From Beijerinckiaceae bacterium (GTDB lineage: Bacteria; Pseudomonadota; Alphaproteobacteria; Rhizobiales; Beijerinckiaceae), in the NCBI GenBank assembly GCA_027532775.1, contig JAPZTO010000006.1, positions 136,047 to 200,046 of the forward strand: 64,000 bases of DNA, read 5' to 3'. Numbering within the stretch: position 1 is the first letter of the stretch; every line of letters starts with the position of its first letter. The translations under genes were made by a program, and so were the position numbers. Below are positions 5,271 to 63,858 of this stretch, in pieces. The notes below the pieces were generated by a model. The model searched no databases. It worked only from the letters and a program-made list of their open reading frames with translations, and was not told where the DNA came from.

Positions 5271-5283
5271 TTTTGATGACCTT

Positions 5284-7495: not shown

Positions 7496-7498
7496 GGC

Positions 7499-7933: not shown

Positions 7934-8146
7934 CAGGCCGTCCGGGATGCCACCAGAAGCGTCAGAGCATCAGAGCGCATCACCTTTATTCTTTGCTTAA
8001 GCCCGCGAACAAGGCACAATTCAGGCCCGCTCCGTCTTGTCCCTGCCCCGCCGGGAAAGCTTCGACAAATTCCGCACTGGCCAAGATTGCGGGGCGCGTT
8101 AGAACAAGCATAAGTCCGGCATATGACCGGGCAGACGGAGGAAACC

Positions 8147-10546: not shown

Positions 10547-10681
10547 GACCGCGCGCCTGTTCCCTCGCCTCTGCTGACTGATTGCCGAAGCCCGCCCGGG
10601 GTGGCCAACCCGTGCTGCCGCGTCGGTCGAGCTAGCCGGCCAGCCGGGCAGATGCCCCGTTTTGGACCGGATCATCAGCAC

Positions 10682-10708
10682 AAAAAAAGGGACCGGTTTC
10701 CCGGTCCC
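10682..10708 (-). terminator. Rho-independent terminator of the FadL-like gene
   Basis: Minus strand GGGACCGG-GAAA-CCGGTCCC followed by T7. Confidence 0.85.
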
Positions 10709-10748
10709 CTCGCCCCCTGCAGGCTTATGGGATGAAGCGGCAGGCCGC

Positions 10749-12041
10749 TCAGAACTTTGCGATAACCGGCGCTTCCTTCTTCACCGGCGCGCCCCAGCGC
10801 GAGGTCAGGCCGAAGGAGAGAAGATGGGCATCACCCTTCGATTCCCCGACGAAGACCGAGCCAGCCGTCAGCGTCTGGGTGATCGGCGCCTTCTTGATGT
10901 GGAGATACGAGTAGGAGGCGTTGATGCTCATCCGCTCGGACCAGTCATAGGTGAAGCCGGTCGAGAGCCAGAGGCGGTCATTATCCGGCAGCGAGGCGCG
11001 GCGGACGGCATCCGTCACCGGCGAGATCTCGTAACCGACACCGGCACGCAGCGTCAGCTTGTCGTTGTAGCGATATTCGCCGCCGAGCGAGAAGAACCAG
11101 CCGTCGCTGTAGCCGAACGGCAGGACAGCCGGGAAGCCCGCCGCCTGGTTCTTGAGCGCGGCATGGCCGATACGGCCCCAGTTCTGCCACTCCACCGAGG
11201 CGAGCAGGTCGAACTTGGTGTGCAGCGTCTGGCGCAGCGAGAGGTTGATACGGTTCGGAAGGTTGAGCGTGCCCTTCGAATTCGACGAGGAAGCCGCGCC
11301 GAACACCGTGGTGCCCTCGATCGGCTGGTCGATGAACGAGCGCCAGCCAAGGCCGATCTGCGTCGTCTTGGTCGGGGTGAAGGTGAGGCCTGCGGTCATG
11401 CCGAAGCCCCAGCCGTCAGCCTGCGTGATCCCGGCACCGGCGGCACCGGCCGGCGGCGTGGGCACAACCTGGCGGGCACTGGCATACTGGATCTGCAAGC
11501 CGACGCCGAACGACCACATCTCGTTGAGCTTGTAGGCCACGGAGGGCGTCAGCGTGATGATGCGGAGCTTGGTCGTCGAGGCGATGAAGCTGGTGCGCGA
11601 GAGCGGATCGGCCTTGGTGGTGTTGCCATAGGTCGAGTTCAGCGAAACGCCGAGATAGATCTTCTCGCTCAGCGGATACACCACGTAGGTGGCAGGCACG
11701 AAGTAATCCATGCCGATATCGCCGGAGAGCGGGCGGGCATTGAGGCCGGGGTTCAGCGGCGAGGCGCCGGTATAGGTGCCGGTGATCTTCGTGGTCGGAA
11801 TGCCAAACGTGTAGTTCGAATCCAGCGTGAAGCGGTTGAAGCCGGTCATCGTGGCCGGGTTCATGAACATGGAGGCCGCCGAGCTCGAGCCCGGCGCCGC
11901 GGCGCCCGCATAGGCCGAGCCGTTGAAAACCGTGCTCTGCGAAGAGTTGATGAAGCCACCGGCCAGCGCCGGTGCCGCAAAGGCGCCCGCGAGGGCGAGG
12001 CCCGTGCTTGCGGCGAGTGCGGTTTTCAAAATCGATTTCAT
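10749..12041 (-). CDS. Outer-membrane long-chain fatty acid transporter, FadL/OmpP1/TodX family
   Basis: Signal peptide, GGFINSSQS..GSAYAG, ASMFMNPATM hatch motif, SLPDNDRLWLSTG, beta-strand pattern, terminal Phe. Confidence 0.88.
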   Translation of the reverse strand: MKSILKTALAASTGLALAGAFAAPALAGGFINSSQSTVFNGSAYAGAAAPGSSSAASMFMNPATMTGFNRFTLDSNYTFGIPTTKITGTYTGASPLNPGLNARPLSGDIGMDYFVPATYVVYPLSEKIYLGVSLNSTYGNTTKADPLSRTSFIASTTKLRIITLTPSVAYKLNEMWSFGVGLQIQYASARQVVPTPPAGAAGAGITQADGWGFGMTAGLTFTPTKTTQIGLGWRSFIDQPIEGTTVFGAASSSNSKGTLNLPNRINLSLRQTLHTKFDLLASVEWQNWGRIGHAALKNQAAGFPAVLPFGYSDGWFFSLGGEYRYNDKLTLRAGVGYEISPVTDAVRRASLPDNDRLWLSTGFTYDWSERMSINASYSYLHIKKAPITQTLTAGSVFVGESKGDAHLLSFGLTSRWGAPVKKEAPVIAKF

Positions 12042-12471
12042 ACCATGCCCCTTGCGTTACCCGGCGCTCATGTGAATCGGACGCCGTTTGTCCCGTCTTC
12101 ACCATTTTGCAGAGCCGATTACGCCATGCAACCGTCACATTTCCGGAGCGCCCGCGCCCTCGAAAGCCATGCTGCACTGCCAAATCCTGCAAATTGCCGG
12201 GGTTTCCGAGGGGGTCCGGAGAAAATCGTCCGGAAATTTGGTTCATGGGTGAACTTTGCCCGACAATCCGACCGGAGTCACGAGGTCCGGTTGCCCCCAA
12301 ATCTTCCGATCCCGGTCATGCTTTTGTAACTAGTGTTGCGCGTCGACAACAATCGGCCGGCGACCGTCCGCTTTTTCGCGAAGACCACGCGAAGTCCCGC
12401 CTTGCAAAGCCCTGACGTTCAGCGTTCTATGCGGCGGGGGAGTACGATCAAGGCGTGATGCGGGGTATCCA

Positions 12472-13320
12472 ATGAAACTGGTCAGGTTTGGGCAACCGGG
12501 AAAAGAAAAGCCGGGGCTCATCGATGGGCAGGGCAAGATCCGTGATCTTTCGGACCATGTTCCGGATATCGCGGGCAACGCCCTTTCCAGGAAGTCACTT
12601 GCCAAGATTGCCAAGCTGAAGGTGGACAAGCTGCCGCTCGTGCGGGGCCGGCCGCGCCTCGGCGCCTGTGTCGGCGACGTTGGCAATTTCATCGCTGTCG
12701 GGCTGAATTACGCCGATCATGCGGCAGAGACCGGGGCGCCGATTCCGGTGGAACCGATTCTCTTCAACAAGGCGCCGTCCTGCATCGTCGGTCCGAATGA
12801 CGATGTGACGATCCCGCGTGGCTCGCAGAAGACCGACTGGGAAGTCGAGCTGGCGATCGTGATCGGCGAGCGTTGCAGCTATGTCGAGGAAAAGGACGCG
12901 ATGAGCGTCATTGCCGGCTTCTGCGTCTGCAATGACGTGTCGGAGCGCGCCTATCAGATCGAGGGCACCGGCCAGTGGATGAAGGGCAAGGGCTGCCCGA
13001 CTTTCGGCCCGCTTGGTCCGTGGCTCGTCACGCCGGACGAGATTGCCGATGTGCAGAAGCTCGGCATGTGGCTCGATGTGAACGGCAAGCGGATGCAGAA
13101 CGGCTCCACGGCCACGATGATCTTCGGCGTGACATTCCTGGTCTCCTACATTTCGAAGTTCCTGATGCTCGAACCGGGCGATGTCATCACCACGGGCACG
13201 CCGCCGGGCGTCGGCATGGGCATGAAGCCGCAGGTCTATCTCAAGCCGGGCGATATCGTGCGCCTCGGAATTGACGGGCTCGGCGAGCAGAAGCAGCTCT
13301 TCAACGCCTGGCAGGGCTGA
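12472..13320 (+). CDS. Fumarylacetoacetate hydrolase family protein
   Basis: VGLNYADH, DWEVELAIVIG, NDVSER, KGKGCPTFGPLGP, GDVITTGTPPGVG. Confidence 0.92.
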   Translation: MKLVRFGQPGKEKPGLIDGQGKIRDLSDHVPDIAGNALSRKSLAKIAKLKVDKLPLVRGRPRLGACVGDVGNFIAVGLNYADHAAETGAPIPVEPILFNKAPSCIVGPNDDVTIPRGSQKTDWEVELAIVIGERCSYVEEKDAMSVIAGFCVCNDVSERAYQIEGTGQWMKGKGCPTFGPLGPWLVTPDEIADVQKLGMWLDVNGKRMQNGSTATMIFGVTFLVSYISKFLMLEPGDVITTGTPPGVGMGMKPQVYLKPGDIVRLGIDGLGEQKQLFNAWQG

Positions 13321-13332
13321 GCACCGGCAGGA

Positions 13333-14316
13333 TCAGCGCGCCCAGGCTCTGGCCAGCGCGCTGATATTGCCTCCGAGCATCCCATCCCAGATATCGCCCT
13401 CCCCGAGCGCGAGCCCACCCGGCACGCGTTCCGGGAAGCGGCGCGCATAGAGCGGCAACCAGCTAAGCTGGCCGCGCGCCAGCGGCTTCTGCGTCGCATT
13501 CGCCTTGATCGCCATGGATTTCGGATCTGCGTAGTTCTCGAGCACCAGCCGGGCAAGGCGGTGGATCGCGGCATCCTTGCGAGGATACCAGTTCTCGCCG
13601 CGCCGGGCCGCGAGTTCGGCCAGCATGACCAGCGGCTTGATCGAGAAGGCGTGGTAATGCAGCGCCATGCCTGCCCGGGCGGTTTCGCGCGGGAGGCTGC
13701 CATCCCGCTCGATATGCGTCATCGCCTCGGCATAGGTCTCCGCGGCCAGCGCCCAGTGGCGGGCATTCCCCGTCGCTGTCGCGGAAGCGCCAAGTGCGAA
13801 GCCGAGCCAATAGTAATGGTTGTTCGGTTGTGCCTTGCGCTTCGGATAATCAGCCGCCACGGCATTGGCGACGCGGTCCAGCCAGAGCTCGATCTGCCGG
13901 CGCTCGGCCTCGGGCAGGTCCGGCTTGGCCATGAGATAGGCCATGGCAATGGCGGCAAGCGCCCATTTCCGCTCGTAATGCGCCTGGATCTCGCTCATCC
14001 GCCCCAGCAGGGCGCCACCGGCAGCCCAATGCGCGATCCAGCGCCCCGCGCATTGGTTCCAGGTCTTGCTGCCGGCAAGGCCGCGGCTGGAAAATCGCGT
14101 CACCTCGCGCCGGAAATCCTCAAGCGGCTTGACCGAGGCCATCCGGCGATCCCAGGCAGCCTGGTCGACGATGGAATTGGCCTTGTCGGTGTAGAAGCGG
14201 TTCGAGGTGATGTCGACAACAGCGGCCGGCGGCGGCGGGCAGGTTTCCTGCCCCCGGGCGGAGGAGGCCAGGATCAGGCCGACAACAAGCGCAACAGGCA
14301 GGACAAGGCGATGCAT
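13333..14316 (-). CDS. Exported alginate lyase, AlgL/PL5-like
   Basis: True start ATG 14316 (MHRLVLPVALVVGLILASSARG signal); NNHYYW matches the PL5 NNHSYW motif; DGSLPRETARAGMALHYHAFS. The longer 15063 frame merely overlaps argC. Confidence 0.8.
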   Translation of the reverse strand: MHRLVLPVALVVGLILASSARGQETCPPPPAAVVDITSNRFYTDKANSIVDQAAWDRRMASVKPLEDFRREVTRFSSRGLAGSKTWNQCAGRWIAHWAAGGALLGRMSEIQAHYERKWALAAIAMAYLMAKPDLPEAERRQIELWLDRVANAVAADYPKRKAQPNNHYYWLGFALGASATATGNARHWALAAETYAEAMTHIERDGSLPRETARAGMALHYHAFSIKPLVMLAELAARRGENWYPRKDAAIHRLARLVLENYADPKSMAIKANATQKPLARGQLSWLPLYARRFPERVPGGLALGEGDIWDGMLGGNISALARAWAR

Positions 14317-14363
14317 CAGGGTTCTCCCGCCCCGAAACATCGCCCGAACATGGCAAGGAAGCG

Positions 14364-15320
14364 TTACATCCCGACCATCAGCTTGAGATTCTGCACCGCC
14401 GCGCCCGAGGCGCCCTTGCCGAGATTGTCGAGCCGGGCGACGAGCACAGCCTGGCCCCGCGCGGCATTGCCGAACACGAAGAGTTCCAGCCTGTTGGTGC
14501 TGTTGAGCGCCTCCGGCTCGAGCTTGCCCTTGAGCGCGAGGGTCTCCTCCTCGCTGGCGACATGCACGAAGGTGCTGCCGGCATAATGCGCGGCGAGCGT
14601 GTTGCGCAGGTCGTTGATGCTGGTGCCGGCGCGCAAGGTCGAGAGATGAAGAGGCACGGAAACCAGCATCCCCTGCCGGAAATTGCCGACGGAGGGCACG
14701 AAGACCGGAGTGCGGGACAACGTGGAATAGGCCGTGAGTTCCGGCAGGTGCTTGTGCGCAAGCCCGAGGCCATAGAGTTCGAAGGCCGGCGCGACGCCGG
14801 TCTCGTAAGCCTCGATCATGCCCTTGCCACCGCCGGAATAGCCGGACACGGCGTTGATCGTCACCGGATGGTCCTTCGCCATGATGCCGGCATCGACAAG
14901 CGGCCGCAGCAGCGCGATGCCGCCGGTCGGATAGCAGCCCGGATTGGCGACGCGCTCCGCCGCGGCAATCCGCGCGGCATGGCCGGGCGCGAGTTCGGGG
15001 AAACCATAGACCCAGCCCGGCGCGACGCGATGGGCGGTCGAGGCATCGATGAAGCGCGGGCAATCGCTGCCCAATGTCTCGCCGAGGGCCACGGCTTCCT
15101 TGGCGGCCTCGTCGGGCAGGCAGAGGATGACGACATCGACGCCGGCCATCAGCGCCTTCTTGGCGCCGACATCCTTGCGGGCTTCCGGCGCGATGGACCG
15201 GATCTCGAAACCGGGCTCGCGGGCCAGCAGATCGCGGATCTGGAGGCCGGTGGTTCCGGCCTCGCCATCGATGAAGACGGCAGGTTTCGCACCCTTGAGC
15301 GGGGAGAACTGTGCAGACAT
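14364..15320 (-). CDS. argC: N-acetyl-gamma-glutamyl-phosphate reductase (type 2)
   Basis: [47 protein letters not shown]. Confidence 0.95.
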
Positions 15321-15395
15321 GGGATGACTCCAGGAATGGGCGGCAGGCAGCGGTTAAGGCCGCAAGATGTCAGAGGGATGAATCCGGCTACCGGA

Positions 15396-15440
15396 TTATC
15401 CTCGTCGTCGCATCGCGATGTGACAGGCCCTGAGGGGCAT
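15396..15440 (-). promoter_or_regulatory. Candidate Arg-rich leader peptide MPLRACHIAMRRRG* with overlapping hairpin upstream of argC
   Basis: GGAGAG RBS at 15450-15445; Arg codons AGG and CGA-CGA-CGA; stop codon lies in the hairpin AATCCGG-TAG-CCGGATT (15381-15397); 75 nt before argC. Confidence 0.5.
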
Positions 15441-15544
15441 CACGCTCTCCCGGATGGCAAGGGCGCCAATCCTGGGCGCCAATGCCGCGATGCATGCCGG
15501 CTTCACGCCGGAAATGCAAGCGGATTTGCGCAGCAGCCCCGTGC

Positions 15545-15871
15545 TCAGGAGACGCGACGGCTGCGGTTGAGGAAGGCTGCGAAGAACAGCCAGGGCAGGA
15601 TCAGCCCGCTGCCGGCGAGGATCAGGCCGAGAAGCCGGCCGAACTGCATAGCCTGTGGCGCGTTGTTGGCCAGGGCCGGCATGAACTGGATCAACCCGAA
15701 GGCGAGGATCGGCGTGAAGAAGGCCGCGAGGCTCCAGCGGATGCGGACGCCAAGCGCCTTGCCCGGTGCGAACAGGATCAGGATCGCCGGGAGGAAGACC
15801 AGGAGTGCAATCAGGCCGAGGGCAAAGGCGCGCATGGGATTCCGGTTCGATTTGGGTTCGGGCATTCCCAT
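15545..15871 (-). CDS. Hypothetical membrane protein (about 3 TM)
   Basis: Three hydrophobic stretches in 108 aa. Confidence 0.65.
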   Translation of the reverse strand: MGMPEPKSNRNPMRAFALGLIALLVFLPAILILFAPGKALGVRIRWSLAAFFTPILAFGLIQFMPALANNAPQAMQFGRLLGLILAGSGLILPWLFFAAFLNRSRRVS

Positions 15872-16002
15872 AGCCGGAGGCGGCCGTCCCCGCTAGGACG
15901 AAATCTCGCCGGGCGCGTAGGGATGCGCCGGATGGAAGAGAATGGGTCCGGGCTTGCGGGGGCCTGTCGATCCGCTATTCCTCAACAAAGAAGGAAACGC
16001 GC

Positions 16003-16758
16003 ATGAACCTCCCGACCGGCAATCCCCGCCTCGATGCCTATCTCGCCCGCGGTTACGAGGAGGTGCGGGGAATGTCCTCCGGCTTTGCTGCCTCCATCGC
16101 CGGCCATCTCATCCGCCGGCAATCCGAGATGGGGATCGGCGGCCATCTGGCGGAAATCGGCACCTTCGAAGGGCGGTTCTTCATCGCCATGGCGCTGGGC
16201 CTGAAGGCCGGGGAACATGCGATCGGTGTCGATGTCTTCACCTGGCCGAGCGAGAAGGTGCTGGACAATCTCCACGCGCATTGCCGGCGCTTCGGCCTCG
16301 GCCCCGCGGAATACACTGCGATCAAGGGCAATACGCGCGGCATGACGGGGGATGACCTGCTCGCCCCGGCCGGCGGTGGCGCGATCCGCTTCTTCCATAT
16401 CGATGGCGAGCATGACGATGCGAATGTCACGCAGGATCTCGACCTCGCCGCGCCATTGATGCATCCGCACGGGCTGATCTGCCTCGATGACATGCTGCAT
16501 CCCGGCTATCCGGAACTGACCGAGAGCGTGCATCGCTGGCTGCGCGCGCACCCCGAATGGCGGGTGCTCGCCATTCTCGACCGGGAGGATATTGTCGCGG
16601 CGGCGAAATATGTGCTCTGCCGGGTTGAGAGCGTGGCTCTCTACGAAAAAGACCTGCTGGAGGCTTTCGCCGCGCAGGTCTTTCCGATGGGCGCCGAATG
16701 TGTCGGCCATTTCACGATGGTTCTGACCCCGACGCCGCGCCTCGCGATCGTGGACTGA
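16003..16758 (+). CDS. Class I SAM-dependent methyltransferase (Methyltransf_24-like)
   Basis: LAEIGTFEGR, IGVDVF, FFHIDGEH, GLICLDD motifs. Confidence 0.82.
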   Translation: MNLPTGNPRLDAYLARGYEEVRGMSSGFAASIAGHLIRRQSEMGIGGHLAEIGTFEGRFFIAMALGLKAGEHAIGVDVFTWPSEKVLDNLHAHCRRFGLGPAEYTAIKGNTRGMTGDDLLAPAGGGAIRFFHIDGEHDDANVTQDLDLAAPLMHPHGLICLDDMLHPGYPELTESVHRWLRAHPEWRVLAILDREDIVAAAKYVLCRVESVALYEKDLLEAFAAQVFPMGAECVGHFTMVLTPTPRLAIVD

Positions 16759-16785
16759 TCGCCAGACGGCTTGTTCCGGGCGAAG

Positions 16786-17649
16786 TTACTCTGGCCTGAC
16801 TTGCCGGATGCGCTGTCCCTCCGGCTTCGGGCGGACGACATTGACGGGGCCGTTGGCCTGCGGGCCATGGACGGGGCCGTTGGCCTGCGGGCCATGACGG
16901 TGCCGCGGGCCCGTTACCACCACGGCACCGGAACGGCCGGGTGTCACGAATGCATCATCCGAGCGCAGGACCGGGCGGGCTGCCGGCGTGCGCGGATGCA
17001 CGGTGACAATCCCGTCGCGGCGGGTCCGCCAGGAGCCGGCATCCTCGCGATAGGCCGAGGAATAGGTGTTCCGCGGCTGCGGGCGGGGCCGGTAGGCATA
17101 GCCATAGGGGCGGTCTACCTCGGCATGGGACTGGGCCCATTGACGCTGCGGCCGGCGCTGGAGACCGTTCTCGACATAGACATCGGCATGGGCCGCCGCG
17201 CGATGGCGATAGCCCTGCGGATGGTGCCCGTAGGCCGGGCGATGGCGCCAGGTCTGGCCGTGGCGCCCCTCATAGGCACGGGGATGGATGCTCTCGGGGC
17301 GATAGGCGTAGCCCGGGCGATAGGCATGGTTGCGCCGGGCGATATAGGCCGGCGTATGGCCATCGCCATATTCGACCATCACCGAGCGGCGGCTGCGAAC
17401 CGGGCGATGCCCGAAGGCATAGGGCGTGGCGCAACGGCAATTCTCGTCCCAGACCGTATGGCGGTTGCCATAGCCGCGGCCATGATGGCCATAATGGCCG
17501 TAACCATGAATGCCGCCGGAGGAAACATCCGGCACCGGGTGGTAATAGACCAGCGGGAAGCCCGGCTGGTAATGCTGCGCCTGCGCCTGGGCAGGGGCGG
17601 AAAAGCCGAAGACGGCCAGAAAACCGGAAGCCAGAACTGCGCGGAACAT
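16786..17649 (-). CDS. Exported Tyr/His/Arg/Gly/Pro-rich low-complexity protein
   Basis: Signal MFRAVLASGFLAVFGFSAPAQA; GGAGG-like context upstream; biased composition. Confidence 0.65.
   Translation of the reverse strand: MFRAVLASGFLAVFGFSAPAQAQAQHYQPGFPLVYYHPVPDVSSGGIHGYGHYGHHGRGYGNRHTVWDENCRCATPYAFGHRPVRSRRSVMVEYGDGHTPAYIARRNHAYRPGYAYRPESIHPRAYEGRHGQTWRHRPAYGHHPQGYRHRAAAHADVYVENGLQRRPQRQWAQSHAEVDRPYGYAYRPRPQPRNTYSSAYREDAGSWRTRRDGIVTVHPRTPAARPVLRSDDAFVTPGRSGAVVVTGPRHRHGPQANGPVHGPQANGPVNVVRPKPEGQRIRQVRPE
16843..16896. repeat. Perfect 27-bp tandem duplication (HGPQANGPV x2)
   Basis: gacggggccgttggcctgcgggccatg at 16843 and 16870. Confidence 0.92.
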
Positions 17650-17776
17650 GATGGACCTCTAACGCGAAACAGGCCTCCACTAGGACTCGCTTCAGCAGTT
17701 GCGTCAATCTGGGACAGGCGCCCGACGCTGATTTCCTTTCTGTTAACATTACCGCCGGGGCGGGTTCCGGCAGCGC

Positions 17777-17808
17777 AAAAAGAAAAAGGCCCGGTTTCCC
17801 GGGCCTTT
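17777..17808 (-). terminator. Rho-independent terminator of rplM-rpsI
   Basis: Minus strand AAAGGCCCGG-GAAA-CCGGGCCTTT followed by TTCTTTTT. Confidence 0.85.
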
Positions 17809-17835
17809 CGCAATTCTGGGTTCGACGAGGCGCGA

Positions 17836-18312
17836 TCAGCGCTTCGAGAACTGGAAGGACCGGCGGGCCTTGGCCTTGCCGTACTTCTTGCGCTCGACCA
17901 CGCGGCTGTCGCGGGTCAGGAAGCCACCCTTCTTGAGCACGCCCCGGAGTTCGGGCTCATAGAAGGTGAGCGCGCGGGAAATGCCATGACGCACCGCGCC
18001 GGCCTGGCCGGAGAGGCCGCCGCCATTGCACGACACCATGATGTCATACTGGTCGACGCGGCCAGCAGCCACGAGCGGCTGGTTCAGCAGCATGCGCAGC
18101 ACCGGGCGGGCGAAATAGACCTCGAGCGCACGGTTGTTGACCGTGATCTTGCCGGAACCCGGCTTGATCCAGACGCGGGCGACCGCGTCCTTGCGCTTGC
18201 CGGTGGCATAGGCACGACCAAGCTTGTCGAGCTTCTGGACATGGACCGGCGCTTCAGCCTGGACCGACGCCTTGGCGCCGAGATCGGCGAGAGAAGACAG
18301 AACCTCAGCCAT
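17836..18312 (-). CDS. rpsI: 30S ribosomal protein S9
   Basis: [45 protein letters not shown]. Confidence 0.98.
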
Positions 18313-18314
18313 GA

Positions 18315-18800
18315 TTACCCGAGCCTCGTATTCTTGGAGTTGAGCGATGCCACATCCAGCACCTGCGGCTGCTGGGCATCATGCGGATGGGCGGCGCCCT
18401 TGTAGACGCGGAGATTGCCGAGCTGCTGGCGACCCAGCGGGCCGCGCGGGAGCATGCGCTCGACGGCCTTCTCGACGATCCGCTCCGGGAAACGGCCCTC
18501 GATGATGAACTTCGCCGACCGTTCCTTGATCCCGCCGGGATAGCCGGTGTGGTGGTAATAGTTCTTCTGGGACAGCTTGCGACCCGTGAACACCACCTTC
18601 TCGGCGTTGATCACGATGACGTTGTCGCCCATGTCCACATGGGGCGTGAAGCTGGCTTTGTGCTTGCCGCGAAGCCGCATGGCGATGATCGAAGCGAGGC
18701 GGCCCACAACGAGGCCGGTGCCATCGATCACAATCCACTTCTTTTCGACTTCGGCCGGCTTCGCCACGAACGAACGCGTGGCAGAGGTCAGGGCCTTCAT
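18315..18800 (-). CDS. rplM: 50S ribosomal protein L13
   Basis: [45 protein letters not shown]; ATG 18800 chosen from the GAGG RBS. Confidence 0.97.
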
Positions 18801-18968
18801 GGTCATCCTCGAAGGGTTGCATCCGAAAACAAGAGGCGACGCCGAAGCGCCGCCACCGAAGCCAAGCGTATAGGCGTTCGCGGAGACGCGGTCAACGTCT
18901 TTCTTTCGCGCCATTCCGACGAAAAGCATGAAAATTCATGGCCTTAACTGACGTGGTATTATTTTACC

Positions 18969-19421
18969 TTATCCAGCTGCACCAGGCGGGATCGAATAGG
19001 TGCCGGTGACATGGGCTACCGGCTCCTCATGCGCCTCGGAAAACAGCGTCACCTCGCCGACGCAGAGCCGCTTGCCGGCCTTGAGCAGCCGGCATTCGGC
19101 GATGAGATCGGCCTTGTCGGGCTTGCGGAGGAAATTTATCGAGAGATTGGTCGTCACCGCCAGCGCCACCCGCCCCGAAACGGAGAGCACGGCCACGTAG
19201 AGTGCAAGGTCGGAGAGCATCATCATGGCCGGGCCGGACAGGGTGCCGCCCGGCCGGATATGGCGCGGATGATAGGCGAGCCGCAGCCGGCAGGAGCCAT
19301 GCGCCACCGACTCGATGGAAACACTGCGTCCGCCATGGTGGATCTCGGGAAAGACCTCATCGAGGAAGGCTTCCATTTCGGCGCGGTCGAGGGCAGGCTT
19401 CTTCTCGGGTGCGGCGGGCAT
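18969..19421 (-). CDS. PaaI-family hot-dog thioesterase
   Basis: RPGGTLSGPAMMMLSD, AVTTNLSINFLRK, PVAHVTGTYSIP. Confidence 0.85.
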   Translation of the reverse strand: MPAAPEKKPALDRAEMEAFLDEVFPEIHHGGRSVSIESVAHGSCRLRLAYHPRHIRPGGTLSGPAMMMLSDLALYVAVLSVSGRVALAVTTNLSINFLRKPDKADLIAECRLLKAGKRLCVGEVTLFSEAHEEPVAHVTGTYSIPPGAAG

Positions 19422-19525
19422 CGGCAGGCGCTTTCGGTTTCGGGGCCGGGAAGCCGCCTTTCCGGAAAGGCAGCACCGCAACGGCAGATCGGGCATCGAC
19501 CCGCTTCGACGGAGGGACAAAGGTG

Positions 19526-20326
19526 ATGACCCCAGCGGCACTTGTCGAGGCCCCTGCCCCGCTGATCCACATCGCGGATCGCGGCGCCATCCGCGTCGTC
19601 ACGCTGGCCAACCCGCAGCGGCGCAACCCGCTCTCGACGTCGATGATCGCCGCCCTGCATGGCGCGCTTCGGGATGCGGGCCAGGACAGCACTGTCCGGG
19701 TGGTGCTGCTGGCGCATGAGGGCCCTGCCTTTTCTGCCGGCCATGACCTCCGGGAAATCCAGGCGGCGCGGGCGACGGCGGATCACGGGCGCAGCTTCTT
19801 CACCAACCTGATGGCGGCCTGCTCCGCCATGATGCTCCAGATCCGCGCGATGCCGCAACCGGTGATCGCGGTTGTCGAGGGCGTGGCGACCGCCGCCGGC
19901 TGTCAGCTCGTCGCGACATGCGACCTAGCGATTGCCGGGGCGGAAGCCCGTTTCGCGACCCCCGGCGTGAATATCGGTCTGTTCTGCTCGACGCCGATGG
20001 TTGCGCTCTCGCGCAATATCAGCCCGAAACACGCGATGGAAATGCTGCTCACGGGGGATCTTGTCGATGCCGCGACAGCCGCACGGTTCGGCCTCGTCAA
20101 CCGGGTTGTCCCCGCCGGCATGGCGCTGGCGGAAGCCGAGGCGCTGGCGCGGCAGATCGCGGGCAAGCCTGCCGCCGTGCTGAAGATCGGCAAGGAGGCC
20201 TTCTACCGCCAGAACGAACTCGATCTCGAGGCCGCCTATGCCTATGCAGGCGGCGTGATGGTGGAGAACATGCTCATGCTCGAGGCGCAGGAAGGGATTG
20301 CCGCCTTCGTGGCTCCAAAGCGGTAG
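19526..20326 (+). CDS. Enoyl-CoA hydratase/isomerase family (ECHDC3-like, canonical Glu residues absent)
   Basis: FSAGHDLRE, ATAAGCQLVATCD, FATPGVNIGLFCSTP. Confidence 0.9.
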   Translation: MTPAALVEAPAPLIHIADRGAIRVVTLANPQRRNPLSTSMIAALHGALRDAGQDSTVRVVLLAHEGPAFSAGHDLREIQAARATADHGRSFFTNLMAACSAMMLQIRAMPQPVIAVVEGVATAAGCQLVATCDLAIAGAEARFATPGVNIGLFCSTPMVALSRNISPKHAMEMLLTGDLVDAATAARFGLVNRVVPAGMALAEAEALARQIAGKPAAVLKIGKEAFYRQNELDLEAAYAYAGGVMVENMLMLEAQEGIAAFVAPKR

Positions 20327-52928: not shown

Positions 52929-53006
52929 CGGAGTGTAGCGCAGCCTGGTTAGCGCACTAGTCTGGGGGACTAGGGGTCGTGGGTTCGAATCCCGCCACTC
53001 CGACCA
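52929..53006 (+). tRNA. tRNA-Pro (GGG)
   Basis: Cloverleaf: CGGAGTG/CACTCCG acceptor stem, GCGC D-stem, CTAGT-CTGGGGG-ACTAG anticodon arm, GTGGG-TTCGAAT-CCCGC T-arm, encoded CCA. Confidence 0.97.
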
Positions 53007-56358: not shown

Positions 56359-57660
56359 TCAGCCCCCGCGCGAAAGAGGGATAACGTTTTCCGGTCGCGT
56401 GTCCTCCCCCATTGCCGCAACGAGGGTCGCACCAATCGCATTCGAGGCGCGGCGCAATGGATCATCGGCAAGATGCGCGTAACGCTGGGTCGTGGTGGGT
56501 TGCTTATGCCCAAGAAGCTTTCCGACAATCTGCAAGCCCATGCCGCCGCCGGCACCGAAGCTGGCGAAGGTATGTCGCAAGTCATGTAAGCGAACACCTT
56601 CCAAGCCGGCGCGGCGCGCAACTGAGCGCCATGGCCGATGCAGGTCAGCGCGCGGCTTTTCATTCTCCTGCCCGGCACTTTCGCCGGCGATGACATATCG
56701 GCCTAATCGAGGCAATTTCGCCAACACGTCGAGGGCAGGCGCATTGAGGATGACGATTTTCCGACCACTCTTTGAATCCGGCAAAAGCAGGATACCGCGC
56801 TCGAAATCGATATGCGTCCATTCGAGATTGAGGATTTCCCGCAACCGGCAACCGGTCAGGATGAGAAGCCGCAATGCTGCCGCCGCATGCTCACCAATTT
56901 TTGCAACGCGGTTTTCAGCCTTGGGCGCGTGCTTCGCCTTCTTTGCCGGGTCCGGCTCCCAAGGAATGCCGTCGCGTTCAGCCTCACGGATTGCGTCACC
57001 AAGCCGGGCCAATTCCTCCGATGTCAGGTAGCGTTCACGCGGGCTTTCCGGAAACGGCTTAATGCCTTTCGTTGGGTTGAAGCCTTCCGCAACAAGACCT
57101 GTCTCCTCCGCATAGCGATAGAAGCCGGATAGCGCGACGATGACGCGGTTTGCAGTCACAGCCCTTGTCGCTCCCAAATCAGCGTGCAGCCGCCGAACCG
57201 CTTCGCGCGACACGTCCGCCAGCTTCTTTTTTCCAATGCGGGGCAGAATGTGCTTGTTGAAGTAAAGAGCCATCAAGTTGCGGCTCGACGCTTTCAGATG
57301 GAGCATGCCGCGCGCCTCGTAAGTCTCGAAAACGGCCTCAACGGTTTCAGCCTTGCGCGATTCCTTACGCGTTCCCGCCGGGTCCTGACCGAGGCGAACC
57401 AATGCCAAAAGCCGCCTCGCCTCGCTTCGCGCGGCATCGGCCTCCAGAGTATGCGCCGAACCAATCTTGAACCGCCGCACAGCAACACCGCGCCCGCCTT
57501 CACCGGGTCGATATTCGATAACCCAAGATTTCTCGCCGGACGGATAGACGCGAAGTCCGAAGCCCTTCACATCGCTGTCGCGCAAGGTGAAGCGCGCGGT
57601 TTCGGGCTGGGCCGCGTCAACGGCCCTCTTGGTCAGCTTTACGGCGGGGCGATGAGCCAT
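56359..57660 (-). CDS. Tyrosine recombinase/integrase with N-terminal arm-binding domain (P4-like)
   Basis: N-terminal RDSDVKGFGLRV..KSW arm domain; catalytic R (TGCRLRE), K (SKSG), HDLRH, LLGH, Y (QRYAH). Confidence 0.96.
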   Translation of the reverse strand: MAHRPAVKLTKRAVDAAQPETARFTLRDSDVKGFGLRVYPSGEKSWVIEYRPGEGGRGVAVRRFKIGSAHTLEADAARSEARRLLALVRLGQDPAGTRKESRKAETVEAVFETYEARGMLHLKASSRNLMALYFNKHILPRIGKKKLADVSREAVRRLHADLGATRAVTANRVIVALSGFYRYAEETGLVAEGFNPTKGIKPFPESPRERYLTSEELARLGDAIREAERDGIPWEPDPAKKAKHAPKAENRVAKIGEHAAAALRLLILTGCRLREILNLEWTHIDFERGILLLPDSKSGRKIVILNAPALDVLAKLPRLGRYVIAGESAGQENEKPRADLHRPWRSVARRAGLEGVRLHDLRHTFASFGAGGGMGLQIVGKLLGHKQPTTTQRYAHLADDPLRRASNAIGATLVAAMGEDTRPENVIPLSRGG

Positions 57661-57823: not shown

Positions 57824-57869
57824 TCTGGGGGACTAGGGGTCGTGGGTTCGAATCCGCCACTCCGACCAT
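57824..57869 (+). repeat. att core repeat (distal copy, 46 bp, one C missing)
   Basis: tctgggggactaggggtcgtgggttcgaatcc-gccactccgaccat. Confidence 0.92.
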
Positions 57870-57977: not shown

Positions 57978-58670
57978 TCAGGCCTCGTCCAGCGTCTCCA
58001 CATAGCGCAAGCCGGCTTTCGCGAGGCCCTCGCGCATGGCGTACATGTCGAGACCGAGTTCGCCGGAGGCGAGGCGCTGGCGTTTTTCGGTCTCGTTCGC
58101 TTCGCGCTTTGCGCCAAGTTCGGCGATCCGCGCGGCATCGGCCCGGGGCACGACCACCACGCCATCATCATCGGCGACGATGACATCGCCCGCATGAACC
58201 AGTGCGCCGGCGCAGATGACCGGCACATTCACCGCACCGAGCGTCGCCTTCACCGTACCCTTGGCGGAAATCGCCCTCGACCAGACCGGGAATCCCATCT
58301 CCGTTAGCGTGCGGATATCGCGGACACCCGCGTCGATGATCAGCGCCTGCACCCCGCGCGCCTTGAGCGAGGTGGCGAGGAGATCGCCGAAATAGCCATC
58401 GGTCGACGGGGCCGTGACCGCCACGACGAGCACATCACCCGGCCGGCATTGCTCGACCGCGACATGCAACATCCAGTTGTCGCCCGGCTGGGCGAGGACC
58501 GTGATGGCGCTGCCGGCAATGGCGGCACCGGGATAGATCGGCCGCATATAGGGCTGCATCAGGCCGATCCGGCCCATGGCCTCGTGGGTGGTGGAGACGC
58601 CGAGGCCGGCCAGGCGCTCGATGGCGGCGGGTTCGGCCCGCTCGACCCGGGTGACGACGATTGTTTTCAC
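57978..58670 (-). CDS. galC: 4-carboxy-4-hydroxy-2-oxoadipate aldolase/oxaloacetate decarboxylase (GalC/LigK)
   Basis: [44 protein letters not shown]; GTG overlaps the upstream stop. Confidence 0.9.
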
Positions 58671-59392
58671 GCGAGTTCCTCCAGAGCCTGCGGGAAGAGG
58701 CGCTGATAGGCCTCGCCATAGGTCATGGCGCGACCGGAATTGCGCCCGCCCTGCACGCCGCGATTGAGCGCGACACGGGTATAGTATTCCCAGAGATGCT
58801 TCTGCGCCGCCAGCACCTCGAAGGCCTTGCGCTTGGTTTCCCAGACATCGTCGATGTTGAGGATCACATTCGGTTTGAAATTGCATTGCTCGGGCTGGTG
58901 CGGCTCGAACAGGAAAACGGGCGGGGCAGCATAGGCGCGGTCCGGATCGGGCTTGTGGCCGGCTGCCTGCGCGATGATGCGGGCCTCCTGGGCCAGCCGC
59001 GTCGCCTCGGGATGGTCGATATTGTACGGATCCTCGAGGCTGTGGGTGAGGATGAAGCTCGGCTTCAACTCGTGGTTGATATCGACCAGCCGGTCGATGA
59101 TGGCCTCGGTGCCGCGCAGGGGGTAATCCCCCGCATCGAAGAACTCGATCTCGGCGCCGAGAATGGCGGCGGCGCGCTCGGCCTCGTCGCGGCGCTGCGC
59201 CTTGACCTCGGCGAGGCTCACGCCGGCCTTCTTCCAGGCGAACTGGCTCTCGCCGCGCTCGCCATAGGAAAGGCAGGCGATCTTCACCCGGTAGCCCTTG
59301 GCAACATGGAGCGCGATGGCGCCCCCGGCCCGCCAGACGAAATCCCCCGGATGGGCGGTGACGACAAGGCCGGTCTTGGTGGATGCACTCAT
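58667..59392 (-). CDS. galB: 4-oxalomesaconate hydratase, GalB (PIG-L family)
   Basis: [45 protein letters not shown]. Confidence 0.88.
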
Positions 59393-59405
59393 TCGGGATT
59401 TCCGA

Positions 59406-60512
59406 TCATTCGGCAGCGTGAGGAAGGGTTCCCGCCTCGGCGGGCTGGCGGGCGAAGGCAATGCCATCGAACAGCTTGCGCGCGGTCCGCAGCAGGCCGG
59501 CACGCGTGACAACCGGCGCCGCCTCGGTCCCTTCCACTTCAAGGCGGACGGAGAATTCGCCGGTCGGATGTTCGACCGAGAGCGTCCGGACCCGGCCCGA
59601 GGGCATGCGGGCCACGGCAGCGGCCGGCGAGCCGGGGAGAACGGCTGCCGTCGCCACCGTGACCGCCGCAAAGACGCCGATCGAGGCATGACATTCATGC
59701 GGGATGAAACTGCGCGTCAGGATATGGCCGCCCGCCACCGGCGGCGCGACGAGGGCGATTTTCGGCACGACCTTGCCCGAGACATCACCGAGATTCATCA
59801 AAGGGCCAGCCTCAAGCCGGATCGCCTCGATCCGGGCCTTGAGTTCAGCATCCTTGTCGAGCTGGTCGCGGGGTTCCTGCCCCGTCCGGCCGAGATCGGC
59901 GGCGCGCATCACGATGACGGGCATGCCATTGTCGATCAGCGTGCAGGGCACGCCTTGGATGACATCGACCACGTTGCCGGTGGGCAGGAGCTTGCCGCAG
60001 ACCGAGCCTTCCGCATCGAGGAAATCGATTGCAATCGGCGCCGCGGTGCCGGGCGCGCCGTCAATCCGGGCCGCGCCGAGATAGTTCACCACGCCACCGG
60101 GCGTTTCGACGAGGATCTCGGCGATCGTGCCGGTATTGAGCGTGCGCACCTTGACCCGCGTCTCGGGATGGCGGGCCTCGATGAGGCCGCGCTCGATGGC
60201 GAAGGGCACCACGCCGGCGAGGATGTTGCCGCAATTCGGGGTCGTATCGACCATCGGTTTGTCCACGCCGACCTGCGCGAACAGGAAATCGATGTCGCAG
60301 CCCGGCTCGACCGAACGCGAGACGATGGCCACCTTCGAGGTCAATGGATGCGCGCCGCCCAACCCATCGACCTGGCGCGGATCGGGCGAGCCCATCAGGC
60401 TGAGCAGCAGCGCATCCCGCGCGGCGGGATCGGCGGGCAGGTCCTCGGCGAGGAAATAGGCCCCTTTCGAGGTGCCGCCCCGCATCATCATGCATCGAAC
60501 GCCCCGGAGCAT
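59406..60512 (-). CDS. galD: 4-oxalomesaconate tautomerase (PrpF/GalD/LigU family)
   Basis: MRGGTSKG, QVDGLGGAHPLTSKVA, NCGN, CHASIG, EHPTG, RTARKLFDG. Confidence 0.9.
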   Translation of the reverse strand: MLRGVRCMMMRGGTSKGAYFLAEDLPADPAARDALLLSLMGSPDPRQVDGLGGAHPLTSKVAIVSRSVEPGCDIDFLFAQVGVDKPMVDTTPNCGNILAGVVPFAIERGLIEARHPETRVKVRTLNTGTIAEILVETPGGVVNYLGAARIDGAPGTAAPIAIDFLDAEGSVCGKLLPTGNVVDVIQGVPCTLIDNGMPVIVMRAADLGRTGQEPRDQLDKDAELKARIEAIRLEAGPLMNLGDVSGKVVPKIALVAPPVAGGHILTRSFIPHECHASIGVFAAVTVATAAVLPGSPAAAVARMPSGRVRTLSVEHPTGEFSVRLEVEGTEAAPVVTRAGLLRTARKLFDGIAFARQPAEAGTLPHAAE

Positions 60513-60795
60513 CGTGGTTTCCCGTTTCCCTGGGGGACCAGACCGGGCAGAACCATGCCGGCTGTCCTTCCTGTCCGAGACAGATGCTCCGCCCGGTTTG
60601 ATGAATCAAATGATCGTTTTGCACGGATTGATGAGCTGCATTCAAAGCCCGTCCCGACCTCCTCCGGTTTCGAGGTCGACGACCCAGGCATGCAAGACCT
60701 TCATCAATGGGCGCGAAAATCCAATTTGATTCAGCAGCGAGGCACCCGCATCCTGCACGCGACCAGAAGGCCGAACGCCCGCCCCGAGGAAAGCC

Positions 60796-61761
60796 GTGTC
60801 CCTGACCGAGCCCTGCCATGACATCGCGCATCTCGCCCATGTCGAGATGTATACCGACCGCTACGAGGACAGCCTGCGCTTCTTCACCGAGATCTACGGC
60901 CTCACCCTCACGGCGGAGGACGAGCATTCCGCCTATCTCCGGGCCTTCGACGATTACGAATTCCACAGCCTCAAGCTGACGCGCCACACGACAACCGGAG
61001 TGGGGCATGTCGCCTATCGCGCCAGTTCGGAGGCCGCCCTGCAGCGCCGGGTGCGCGCCATCGAGGCCAGCGGGTTCCACATCCATGGCTGGACCGAAGG
61101 CGATCTCGGCCATGGCCGCGCTTTCCGCTTCGAGGATCCGTTCGGCCATGTCTTCGAGATCTATTACGACACGCATCGCTATGTGCCGCCGGCGGGCCAG
61201 AAGGCGGCGCTGAAGAACATCGCCCAGCGCTATCACGGCCGCGGCGCCTGCCCGCGGCGGCTCGACCATCTCAACCTGCTGGCGAGCGATGTGCGCGAGT
61301 TCCGGCGCTTCATGGAAACCTGCCTCGGCAGCCGCGTGACCGAGATGATCCAGCTCGACAATGGCCGGATCGGCGGGTGCTGGTTCACGATCAACAACAA
61401 GACCTATGATCTCGCCTGCACCGAGGAGCATGGTGGCGGCACGGGGCGCCTGCACCATGTGACCTATGCCACCGACCAGCGCGAGGACATCCTGCGCGCG
61501 GCGGATATCTTCCTCGAGAACGGCGTGCATATCGAAACCGGGCCGCACAAGCATGCGATCCAGGGCACGTTCTTCCTCTATGTCTGGGAGCCGGCGGGCA
61601 ACCGCGTGGAACTGGCCAATGCCGGAGCGCGGCTCATCCTGGCGCCGGACTGGGAGCCGATCATCTGGACCGAAACCGACCGGAAGAAGGGCCAGGCCTG
61701 GGGGTTGAAGACGATCGAGACCTTCCACACGCATGGCACGCCGCCGGCGAAGAAGGACTGA
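60796..61761 (+). CDS. VOC-family extradiol dioxygenase (catechol 2,3-dioxygenase-like)
   Basis: AHLAHVE, RLDHLNL, GRLHHV, GPHKHAI, FLYVWEPAGNRVEL (2-His-1-Glu metal set intact). Confidence 0.9.
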   Translation: MSLTEPCHDIAHLAHVEMYTDRYEDSLRFFTEIYGLTLTAEDEHSAYLRAFDDYEFHSLKLTRHTTTGVGHVAYRASSEAALQRRVRAIEASGFHIHGWTEGDLGHGRAFRFEDPFGHVFEIYYDTHRYVPPAGQKAALKNIAQRYHGRGACPRRLDHLNLLASDVREFRRFMETCLGSRVTEMIQLDNGRIGGCWFTINNKTYDLACTEEHGGGTGRLHHVTYATDQREDILRAADIFLENGVHIETGPHKHAIQGTFFLYVWEPAGNRVELANAGARLILAPDWEPIIWTETDRKKGQAWGLKTIETFHTHGTPPAKKD

Positions 61762-61767: not shown

Positions 61768-62943
61768 TCAGGCCCCTGCCAGCCGCGTGCCGAGTTCGGC
61801 CAGCCTGTCCGCGCCGACATTGGCGAAGGCGATACGGAGATGGGTTTCCTGCCCCGGGCCGAAATAGGGCCCCGGCAAAGCCAGCACCCCGCTTTCCAGC
61901 GCCAGCTTGCGCGCCGCCTCCCGCGCGGGCAGGCCCGGGAAGGGATGGGCGGCAAAGGCGAAATAGGCGCCGAGGGAATCGAGCCGCCAGCCCGGCAGGG
62001 GTGCGAAGGCAGCGCGGCAGGCCGCCGCTCGGCGCACCAGATCGTCGCGCTGGCCATGGCGCCAGCTGCGCAGGCCCTCGATGGCCCAGGCGACCACCCT
62101 TTGGGCAAGGCGGGCCGGGCAGATCTGCATCGTGTCCAGCACCTTGGCGATCTCGGCCATGGTTTCCGGCGCGGCCGCCATCGCCCCGAGCCGGTGGCCC
62201 GGCACGGCATAGGCCTTCGAAAAGGAATAGAGCTGGATCACCGCATCGCCCCAGCCGGGATCGGCCAGCAGATCATGCGGGCGGCCGCTGCCAGCGGGCA
62301 GGAAATCGCGGTAGGTCTCGTCGAGGATGAGGGCCAGCCCGCGCTGCCGCGCCAGTTCCGCGAAGGCCGCGATTATGGTCGGCGGGTAGATGGCGCCGGT
62401 GGGGTTGTTCGGCGTGACGAGCACGATGGCGCGGGTGGCGGGCGTGATCCGCGCCGCCGCCTCCGCCACATCCGGGACGAAGCCCGTTTCCGGGCGGCAT
62501 GGCAGGGGCTGCGCTGCAATACCCAGCATATCCAGCGCCATCTTGTGGTTGAAATACCACGGCGTGGGCAGCATGACAGCGTCGCCCGCGCCGGCAATCG
62601 CCATCACGGCGACCATGAAGGCCTCGTTGCAGCCCGCCGTGATCGCGACCGATTCCACCGGGAGAGAGGCGCCATACAGCGCGCCGGTCTCCGCCGCATA
62701 GGCCTCGCGCAATTCGGCATCGCCCAGGATCGGGCCGTAGCGGGTGCAATCGGCATGGCCGGCAGCCTCGGCGAGGCGCTCCAGCATCGCGGCCGGCGGC
62801 GGCTCGCCGGGAACCGCCTGCGACAGGTCGATCATCGGGCCGTACCGCCCGTCATAATCGCGGCGCCAGCCCTGCGCCTCGGGAATGGGGGGTGAATCGA
62901 CCGCGAGCAGGCGCGGGTTGAGGCGGTAGGCAAGCTTTGTCAC
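61768..62943 (-). CDS. PLP-dependent class I/II aminotransferase
   Basis: IDLSQAVP, LVTPNNPTG, LDETYRDF, SFSKAYAVPGHRLG; GTG start at 62943. Confidence 0.88.
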   Translation of the reverse strand: MTKLAYRLNPRLLAVDSPPIPEAQGWRRDYDGRYGPMIDLSQAVPGEPPPAAMLERLAEAAGHADCTRYGPILGDAELREAYAAETGALYGASLPVESVAITAGCNEAFMVAVMAIAGAGDAVMLPTPWYFNHKMALDMLGIAAQPLPCRPETGFVPDVAEAAARITPATRAIVLVTPNNPTGAIYPPTIIAAFAELARQRGLALILDETYRDFLPAGSGRPHDLLADPGWGDAVIQLYSFSKAYAVPGHRLGAMAAAPETMAEIAKVLDTMQICPARLAQRVVAWAIEGLRSWRHGQRDDLVRRAAACRAAFAPLPGWRLDSLGAYFAFAAHPFPGLPAREAARKLALESGVLALPGPYFGPGQETHLRIAFANVGADRLAELGTRLAGA

Positions 62944-63081
62944 GGAGGGTCCTCGGGATATCCGGGCGACCTTAGCCCGCCATAGCGGCGGTGCAAGGGC
63001 TGGCTTCGCGCTTGCATGGGCGGATGCATTGACGGAACGCGCGCCCGTGCCATGTTCGATAGACAGAGAAGGAGACGTCCC

Positions 63082-63858
63082 ATGCTGCGCCCTCTCGCTT
63101 TTGCCTTCTGGCTGCTGGCCTCGGCCCTGCCCGCCCTTGCCGAAGCCTGCCTCGGCCCCATCGCCCGGGCGCCGGACGGCACGCCCATTTCCCGCGCGGC
63201 GCTGCAGAACGGCGAGGTGCGGATCACCTATGTCGGCCATTCCACTTTCACGATCGAGAGCCCGCAAGGCGTGACGGCGGCAACCGATTACAGCGATTAC
63301 TTCCGGCCGCCCTTCCTGCCGACCATTGCGACGATGAACCACGCCCATTCGAGCCATTTCACCTACCGGCCGGACCCCGCGATCCGGCATGTCCTGCGTG
63401 GCTGGGCGCATGAGGGGCGCACGCCGTCCTTCGATGTGCAGGAGCGCGACATGCGCGTCCGCAATGTGCCGACCAATATCCGCGATGGCGGGGCCACCGA
63501 ATTCTCCGGCAATTCGATCTTCATTTTCGAGGTGGGTGGCCTTTGCATCGCCCATCTTGGCCATCTCCACCACACGCTGACGCCGGACCATCTCAAGGCG
63601 ATCGGGCAGGTGGATATCCTGATGGCGGCGGTCGACGGCTCCTGGACGCTGGATCTCGACGGGATTGTCGAGGTGATCACGCAATTGCAGCCGAAAGTGG
63701 TGATCCCGATGCATTTCATCACCGAATACTCGCTGCAGCGCTTCCTCTCGCATATCGGGACGCGCTACCCGGTCGAGCGCCTGACCGGGGACAGCGCGGT
63801 GTATTCGCGTGCAAATTTGCCAACGAAACCGGCAATTCAGGTCATGATTGGCCGGTGA
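63082..63858 (+). CDS. Exported metallo-beta-lactamase-fold hydrolase (Lactamase_B_3-like)
   Basis: AAGGAG RBS; ITYVGHSTF, NHAHSSH, AHLGHL, VIPMHF. Confidence 0.85.
   Translation: MLRPLAFAFWLLASALPALAEACLGPIARAPDGTPISRAALQNGEVRITYVGHSTFTIESPQGVTAATDYSDYFRPPFLPTIATMNHAHSSHFTYRPDPAIRHVLRGWAHEGRTPSFDVQERDMRVRNVPTNIRDGGATEFSGNSIFIFEVGGLCIAHLGHLHHTLTPDHLKAIGQVDILMAAVDGSWTLDLDGIVEVITQLQPKVVIPMHFITEYSLQRFLSHIGTRYPVERLTGDSAVYSRANLPTKPAIQVMIGR

Follow-up and report, generated by a model that had tools for sequence, protein, structure and literature searches.

We describe a putative gallate ring-cleavage locus in a Beijerinckiaceae bacterium. The window analyzed, 64,000 nucleotides long (genome G000, contig C8; G000:C8:136047-200046), carries four genes of interest within positions 57978-61761: galC, galB and galD and, divergent from them, a gene for a two-domain dioxygenase of the VOC superfamily (hereafter VOC). 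Our favored reading, to which we assign a probability of roughly 0.55, is that VOC cleaves gallate to 4-oxalomesaconate and forms a degradation route with GalD, GalB and GalC, that LigAB acts alongside it, and that the genes belong to a supercluster that is split in this genome; gene identities, fold, metal ligands and conserved linkage are shown below, whereas substrate, product and regulation are all predicted ones. As far as the sequences can tell, this would be a non-orthologous displacement of, or an addition to, the ring-cleavage step of a known pathway.

All three lower-pathway enzymes are present and, judged by their profile and structure matches, are orthologues of characterized gal enzymes (coordinates in Table 1). 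GalD matches the equivalog profile NF033377 with 532 bits (cut-off 440) and PF04303 with 359 bits, and GalB aligns end to end with the structure of the Pseudomonas putida KT2440 4-oxalomesaconate hydratase (PDB ID: 5cgz, 292 bits). The galC open reading frame spans 57978-58886 on the minus strand and exceeds the cut-offs of two equivalog profiles (NF006731, 388 bits against 179; TIGR02798, 373 bits against 304.5); its probable start is a GTG at 58670, preceded by GGAGG and overlapping the galB stop codon as GTGA. galB starts with ATG at 59392 and lies 13 nt from galD, and this spacing together with the start/stop overlap indicates that galC, galB and galD form a single operon. The galD and VOC genes are divergent, with 283 bp between them. 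An earlier note on this DNA had described a complete lower pathway divergent from a VOC dioxygenase with intact metal ligands, and its coordinates and gene calls are borne out, the intact ligands being a His/His/Glu triad. That note had also remarked on the lack of galA, ligAB, ligC, ligI, a LysR regulator and a transporter in the cluster; the interval 57978-61761 indeed contains none of these, nor any other regulator or a porin.

The linkage of VOC to gal genes is conserved. A scan of one genome per species returned at least 590 relatives of VOC, and the best 80 of them, at 77-95% identity, were analyzed with a neighborhood of 9 kb; these are related genomes, so that the counts overstate independence. 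At least one of galB, galC and galD lies near VOC in 76 of the 80 species; all three are found in 62, and in 43 loci the genes are tightly packed on one strand as galB-VOC-galC-galD. The other four loci, L015, L037, L049 and L083, lack gal genes and have an uninformative context. The association goes far beyond chance. The hosts belong to the Hyphomicrobiales, Rhodobacterales, Pantoea/Erwinia, Arenimonas and Granulosicoccaceae, with one Geopsychrobacteraceae genome, and copies more than 80% identical occur in Rhizobium, Agrobacterium, Devosia, Sulfitobacter and many metagenomes, an unusually strong conservation across orders. Further out, a 54%-identical homologue (P0122) sits in a PIG-L-RraA-PrpF-VOC-aldehyde dehydrogenase operon and another, 49% identical, has an RraA-like gene before it, while homologues at 39-43% identity keep the catalytic His and neighbor genes for 4-oxalocrotonate tautomerase and FAA-hydrolase, or unrelated genes. 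The linkage to gal genes thus fades with distance, and relatives at 40% identity or less belong to classical catechol meta-pathway contexts. Two further observations concern the family: a metagenomic protein of 544 residues (P0088) has VOC fused to an RraA-like (GalC) domain, and two genomes of one genus (G204:C1:61796-62734 and G231:C26:247795-248727) carry a 61-62% identical VOC gene with a single in-frame TGA, perhaps because the gene is a pseudogene or because of an error in sequencing.

Other genes recur in these neighborhoods. In 52 of the 80 loci there is a PcaQ-like LysR gene near VOC, and 18 have TRAP transporters. A gene for a DUF1932 NAD(P)-binding protein belongs to the module or adjoins it in 39 loci; in Pantoea and G078 it is part of the operon itself. 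Nine loci encode a member of the LigM equivalog (vanillate/3-O-methylgallate O-demethylase; 648 and 609 bits, cut-off 580) with TRAP transporters alongside, six have an Amidohydro_2 lactonase-like gene of the LigI-related family after galD, and LigAB is nearby in one. The LysR gene divergent from the VOC operon (L018:3230-4450, representing the cluster of 52 loci; L008, 7427-8638) encodes about 400 residues with two HTH_1 stretches, that is, an extra N-terminal helix-turn-helix before a complete PcaQ-like LysR; such an architecture is unusual, provided that the genes are called correctly. Eight species (L065:4872-6803, L026, L031, L035, L069, L082, L086 and L089) have, about 8 kb upstream of VOC, a gene for a 643-residue MobA-like FAD aromatic hydroxylase with a phenol-hydroxylase dimerization domain, which could supply a di- or trihydroxybenzoate substrate. 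No tannase was seen among those recurrent neighbor clusters of the 80 proteobacterial loci that were scanned with Pfam, many clusters being unscanned.

The predicted chemistry fits this gene content. VOC would cleave gallate (3,4,5-trihydroxybenzoate) at the C4-C5 bond, with 4-oxalomesaconate as the direct product; GalD would tautomerize this compound, GalB would hydrate it to 4-carboxy-4-hydroxy-2-oxoadipate, and GalC would split the latter into pyruvate and oxaloacetate. VOC would be a functional analogue, on a VOC fold, of the LigB-fold gallate dioxygenases GalA and DesB. Protocatechuate 4,5-cleavage needs a dehydrogenase and a lactone hydrolase before 4-oxalomesaconate is reached, and 3-O-methylgallate cleavage needs an esterase or LigI. 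Gallate is the only ring substrate that gives 4-oxalomesaconate directly by extradiol-type cleavage (PMC8091115). It is this direct yield that would make galB-VOC-galC-galD self-sufficient down to pyruvate and oxaloacetate.

The VOC protein consists of two tandem VOC domains, PF22247 and PF00903, with the active site in the C-terminal one. An AlphaFold2 model built on 31 homologues (predicted local distance difference test score, 92.9) was compared with known structures using Foldseek and superposes on the alkylcatechol dioxygenase AphC (PDB ID: 7q2a, TM score of 0.93, root mean square deviation of 1.3 and 35% sequence identity) and on RHA1 3lm4 (TM score of 0.93 and 35% identity); identity falls to 28% with homoprotocatechuate 2,3-dioxygenase (HPCD) and to 27% with XylE. 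The metal ligands H158, H221 and E272 correspond to H155, H214 and E267 of HPCD and are nearly invariant in the 31-sequence alignment, and the second-sphere residues Y262, H253, N160 and W196 are kept in the alignment to HPCD. Sequence and model together point to an Fe(II) (2-His-1-carboxylate) ring-cleavage dioxygenase. VOC differs from the characterized type I enzymes in its partners, gal genes in place of the 4-oxalocrotonate branch, and in having Tyr204 at the column of the acid-base His200 of HPCD (His199 of XylE). Tyr204 lies within the motif WFT[IV]NNK[TSG]YDL, found in 79 of the 80 clade species; a Tyr also occupies this column in PDB 9wgj and in P0122, and the His is retained in AphC/3lm4, in HPCD and in relatives at 49% identity or less. 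The best named family match is TIGR03211, catechol 2,3-dioxygenase, where VOC scores 297.2 bits, under the cut-off of 320.2. VOC matches neither PF02900 nor PF07746 and lacks the architecture of GalA and DesB, a LigB-fold domain fused to a LigA-like one. Its closest solved relative is PDB 9wgj (348 bits, about 58% identity over 310 residues), a protein of 323 residues that was deposited as 'Catechol 1,2-dioxygenase', an unfitting name for an extradiol VOC enzyme; this entry may be the first structural work on the VOC clade.

A phylogenetic profile was drawn up for a fixed sample of 301 genomes of the order, which are likewise related to one another. VOC was found in 40, GalD above cut-off in 71, pcaH (protocatechuate 3,4-dioxygenase) in 126, and a LigB-type enzyme, meaning one similar to the LigB of G000, in 28. 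Where VOC is at least 65% identical, GalD is always present (27/27 genomes). No LigB-type enzyme was found by this query in 23 genomes that have VOC and GalD, and a family-level check in five of these gave only weak, unlinked LigB-family matches, or none. The suggestion of the earlier note that VOC supplies the 4-oxalomesaconate pathway as a non-homologous ring opener gains support from these 23 genomes, as it does from the conservation of the operon and the catechol contexts of distant relatives. pcaH accompanies VOC in 37 of 40 genomes, compared with 89 of the 261 others, which would make another route for protocatechuate redundant; pca and gal pathways coexist in P. putida as well.

The genome does encode a LigAB. 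Its only LigB-family genes lie at C10:326312-327106 and C8:200029-200691, and the sequence matches identify the ligA-ligB pair on C10, outside the window, as genuine, the best solved match of LigB being the SYK-6 LigB. Around this pair lie genes for a LysR, a PcaD-like alpha/beta hydrolase, a Liv-type ABC transporter, a MetE-like protein, VanB, VanA, two GntR regulators and a TRAP system; a PcaK-like MFS transporter was not found in the genome by tblastn. In a genome of the same genus (G092), genes for VanB, the MetE-like protein, the ABC transporter, LigB, LigA, the hydrolase, GalC, GalB, GalD, DUF1932 and LysR are contiguous and divergent from VOC, and in G078 the order LysR-galD-galB-galC-DUF1932-VOC adjoins ligBA and vanAB. 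The LysR on C10 is 73% identical to that beside VOC in the sister species. Because the genes are contiguous in relatives, an ancestral supercluster appears to have been split in three in this genome, over C8, C10 and C15. The claim of the earlier note that VOC stands in for GalA or LigAB is thus right for the locus, which has neither; it fails for the genome, with ligAB on C10 and, in the same-genus genome, contiguous with galCBD and VOC. The coexistence of VOC and LigAB in one cluster of relatives argues for different substrates, and in this lineage VOC most likely works alongside LigAB and does not replace it.

We therefore place the locus within a larger scheme, as one arm of a syringate/vanillate/gallate supercluster that would be spread over three contigs. 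VanAB (LigM in other taxa) would supply the demethylated ring or gallate; in X. citri, VanAB turns syringate via 3-O-methylgallate into gallate (PMC11393088). LigAB, with the hydrolase encoded next to it, would act on a second ring compound (3-O-methylgallate or protocatechuate), the VOC and LigAB arms would converge on GalD, GalB and GalC, and the LysR on C10 probably controls the divergent promoters of the gal-VOC locus. The MetE-like Meth_synt_2 gene (PRK06520, 537 bits) stays in the supercluster of the sister species at 85% identity, which suggests a role in methoxy-aromatic catabolism.

Table 1. Positions of the gal and VOC genes and of related features. Coordinates refer to the window unless a contig is named; strands are given for the window genes.
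Feature	Position	Strand	Matches and content
galC (4-carboxy-4-hydroxy-2-oxoadipate aldolase)	57978-58670	minus	NF006731, TIGR02798, PF03737 RraA-like
galB (PIG-L-family 4-oxalomesaconate (CHM) hydratase), 241 aa	58667-59392	minus	PF02585; 5cgz match
galD (PrpF-family 4-oxalomesaconate tautomerase), 368 aa	59406-60512	minus	NF033377; PF04303
Divergent control region galD-VOC	60513-60795	.	four TTGATGAA/TTCATCAA-type half-sites
VOC gene (ring-cleavage dioxygenase of the type I, extradiol kind with two VOC domains), 321 aa; putative gallate dioxygenase	60796-61761	plus	PF00903, PF22247
ligA	C10:325970-326224	-	99 bits
ligB	C10:326312-327106	-	214 bits; 302 bits to SYK-6 LigB (1b4u_B); 236 bits to DesB
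Second aromatic cluster	L007 (G000:C10:316000-335999), ~4100-20000	-	TRAP, GntR, LysR, hydrolase, ligA, ligB, five-gene Liv-type ABC, Meth_synt_2, vanB, GntR, vanA

Several points weigh against a gallate dioxygenase. We found no publication on this VOC clade, on a VOC or type I gallate dioxygenase, or on an assay of a clade member. In the profile, 24 GalD-positive genomes have neither VOC nor a LigB-type enzyme, so the presence of GalD alone calls for neither. LigM also demethylates vanillate, to protocatechuate, and the DUF1932 gene at 39 of the 80 loci together with the aldehyde dehydrogenase of the 54%-identical operon hints at a semialdehyde product from a dihydroxy substrate. The LigAB of the genome counts here too: the earlier note had named, as jointly unfavorable to its reading, an enzyme restricted to catechol or homoprotocatechuate and the presence of galA or ligAB elsewhere in the genome, and the ligAB half of this is what we find. 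LigAB2 of N. aromaticivorans cleaves gallate (PMC8091115), and in X. citri the role of gallate dioxygenase is predicted for a split LigAB (PMC11393088); since LigAB-type enzymes can do so, VOC is not needed to explain the gal genes here.

The main rival explanation, which we consider unlikely, is that VOC is a protocatechuate 4,5-dioxygenase. Its product, 4-carboxy-2-hydroxymuconate semialdehyde, would be oxidized by a dehydrogenase (DUF1932 in Proteobacteria, an aldehyde dehydrogenase in other phyla) towards 2-pyrone-4,6-dicarboxylate or 4-oxalomesaconate before GalD, GalB and GalC act. The frequent DUF1932 neighbor would then have a task, as would the aldehyde dehydrogenase gene directly 3' of VOC in the P0122 operon; LigM at nine loci could provide protocatechuate from vanillate, and the LigI-related gene after galD at six loci fits as well. 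However, this locus and many four-gene operons (e.g. L010) have no dehydrogenase or lactone hydrolase, and the genome's own DUF1932 orthologue (C15:635306-636148; L101, 6307-7149), 69% identical to the G092 copy, is displaced to C15 beside a TctC receptor gene and unrelated genes. Nor was a clear LigI found among the four strongest of the five Amidohydro_2 genes in the genome: none of the four resembles the LigI-related match of L026, three match fuconolactonase weakly and below cut-off, and one has no match. To these are added the pcaH already present in nearly all VOC genomes and the redundancy that would arise in relatives where LigAB, a known protocatechuate 4,5-dioxygenase, shares a cluster with VOC.

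The DUF1932 gene is puzzling under the gallate reading too. It is the fifth conserved member of the VOC-gal module, yet gallate catabolism in its known form needs no dehydrogenase. The DUF1932/NAD_binding_2 protein has no NCBIfam match; other copies lie at L023:8233-9156 and L100:12253-13035. We can only speculate that it acts as a semialdehyde dehydrogenase, or as a 3-dehydroshikimate dehydrogenase that makes gallate.

It is less probable again that VOC cleaves some other substituted catechol or pyrogallol that drains into the 4-oxalomesaconate pathway, such as 3-O-methylgallate (as DesZ does) or the product of a neighboring hydroxylase. LigM-type or VanAB demethylases nearby and the MobA-like FAD hydroxylase at eight loci are consistent with such substrates, and the LigI-family-like genes at six loci would be needed if the product of 3-O-methylgallate cleavage (the methyl ester CHMOD) cyclizes to 2-pyrone-4,6-dicarboxylate (chemistry in PMC8091115). 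The commonest operon, however, has neither an esterase nor LigI, so that 3-O-methylgallate cleavage would dead-end in 2-pyrone-4,6-dicarboxylate, and in this lineage the hydrolase adjoins ligAB, not VOC. Finally, that the LigAB on C10 feeds GalD, GalB and GalC while VOC is a redundant or unrelated catechol or alkylcatechol 2,3-dioxygenase, adjacent by accident, is very improbable. In its favor are the ligAB pair itself, which in the sister species is linked to galCBD, and the matches of VOC, with TIGR03211 as the best named family and an alkylcatechol dioxygenase as the closest solved structure of known function; but the TIGR03211 score is under its cut-off, exactly this clade is gal-linked in nearly all species with LigAB nearby in only one, neither here nor in the clade is VOC accompanied by genes of the lower catechol meta-pathway (these are seen only with distant relatives that have the His), and VOC is extremely conserved across orders.

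The region between galD and VOC carries half-sites at about 60598-60609, 60625-60642, 60700-60707 and 60726-60736, arranged as inverted and direct repeats, with the palindrome TTGATGAATCAA among them. These half-site blocks are AT-richer and identical in the two closest relatives, where the flanks vary; a sigma-70 consensus was not found in this intergenic region. The half-sites are candidate operators for a regulator encoded elsewhere, the LysR or a GntR on C10, and their regulatory role is predicted from sequence.

On the right, the VOC gene is followed by a convergent gene for a PRK07550-type aminotransferase (61768-62943), an MBL-fold Lactamase_B_3 gene (63016-63858) and a YgiD-like LigB-family gene from about 63848, which runs off the window; this trio is kept only in the closest relatives and lies outside the gal module. 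We rejected the aminotransferase as a pathway member because of its convergent orientation and its restriction to the two closest relatives. The YgiD-like gene, which the earlier note had offered as an alternative ring opener, was discarded as well: it scores 86 bits to LigB, follows the MBL-fold gene, and has a similar gene near VOC in only 3 of the 80 loci. On the left lies a tRNA-Pro(GGG) gene (52929-53006), with a second copy of its 3' end at about 57826-57869; the low-GC element enclosed by the repeats, some 4.9 kb long, carries a tyrosine integrase gene (56359-57660, minus strand) and abuts galC. This integrase island may mark the rearrangement that split the aromatic supercluster.

Among the closest known counterparts is the gal cluster of P. 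putida KT2440 (GalA, GalD, GalB, GalC, GalT, GalP and GalR; Nogales et al. 2005 and 2011, as cited in PMC9867520 and PMC11393088). The two systems share GalD, GalB and GalC orthologues, the same chemical logic, from a trihydroxybenzoate via 4-oxalomesaconate to pyruvate and oxaloacetate, and a protocatechuate 3,4-cleavage pathway in the same genome. They differ in gene order and in the ring-cleavage gene, which here has a VOC fold and no LigB or LigA domain, and the present locus has no LysR (GalR), transporter or porin (GalT, GalP), the probable LysR being on C10. DesB and LigAB of Sphingobium sp. SYK-6 and LigAB and LigAB2 of Novosphingobium aromaticivorans (PMC8091115, PMC6888825) are class III, LigB-fold extradiol enzymes that act on gallate, 3-O-methylgallate and protocatechuate. 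The proposed conversion of gallate to 4-oxalomesaconate and the feeding of one lower pathway by several ring openers are alike, whereas the VOC superfamily is unrelated to these enzymes and LigJ, an amidohydrolase, is replaced here by a PIG-L-type GalB.

A broader proposal, which we put at slightly below an even chance, is that VOC represents a convergent VOC-fold gallate dioxygenase without the acid-base His (Tyr204 in its place), that it is the prevailing gallate ring opener in Hyphomicrobiales, Rhodobacterales and Pantoea/Erwinia, that it is mislabeled as 'catechol 2,3-dioxygenase' in at least 590 species-representative genomes, and that its DUF1932 partner adds an undescribed step.

The breakdown of tannin and lignin yields gallate and syringate as major products, and both pathway reconstructions and lignin-valorization designs presume a LigB-fold gallate opener (GalA, DesB or LigAB). 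Should VOC prove to be a gallate dioxygenase, the natural His-to-Tyr change at a key catalytic position would be a test case for the extradiol dioxygenase mechanism, and the four genes would offer a compact cassette for engineering the conversion of gallate to central metabolites. It would also mean that many bacteria of plants and the sea, among them Rhizobium, Agrobacterium, Pantoea and roseobacters, have a gallate catabolism that is being missed or misannotated. As for this genome, the locus is most likely a fragment of a dispersed syringate/vanillate/gallate supercluster and not a stand-alone oddity.

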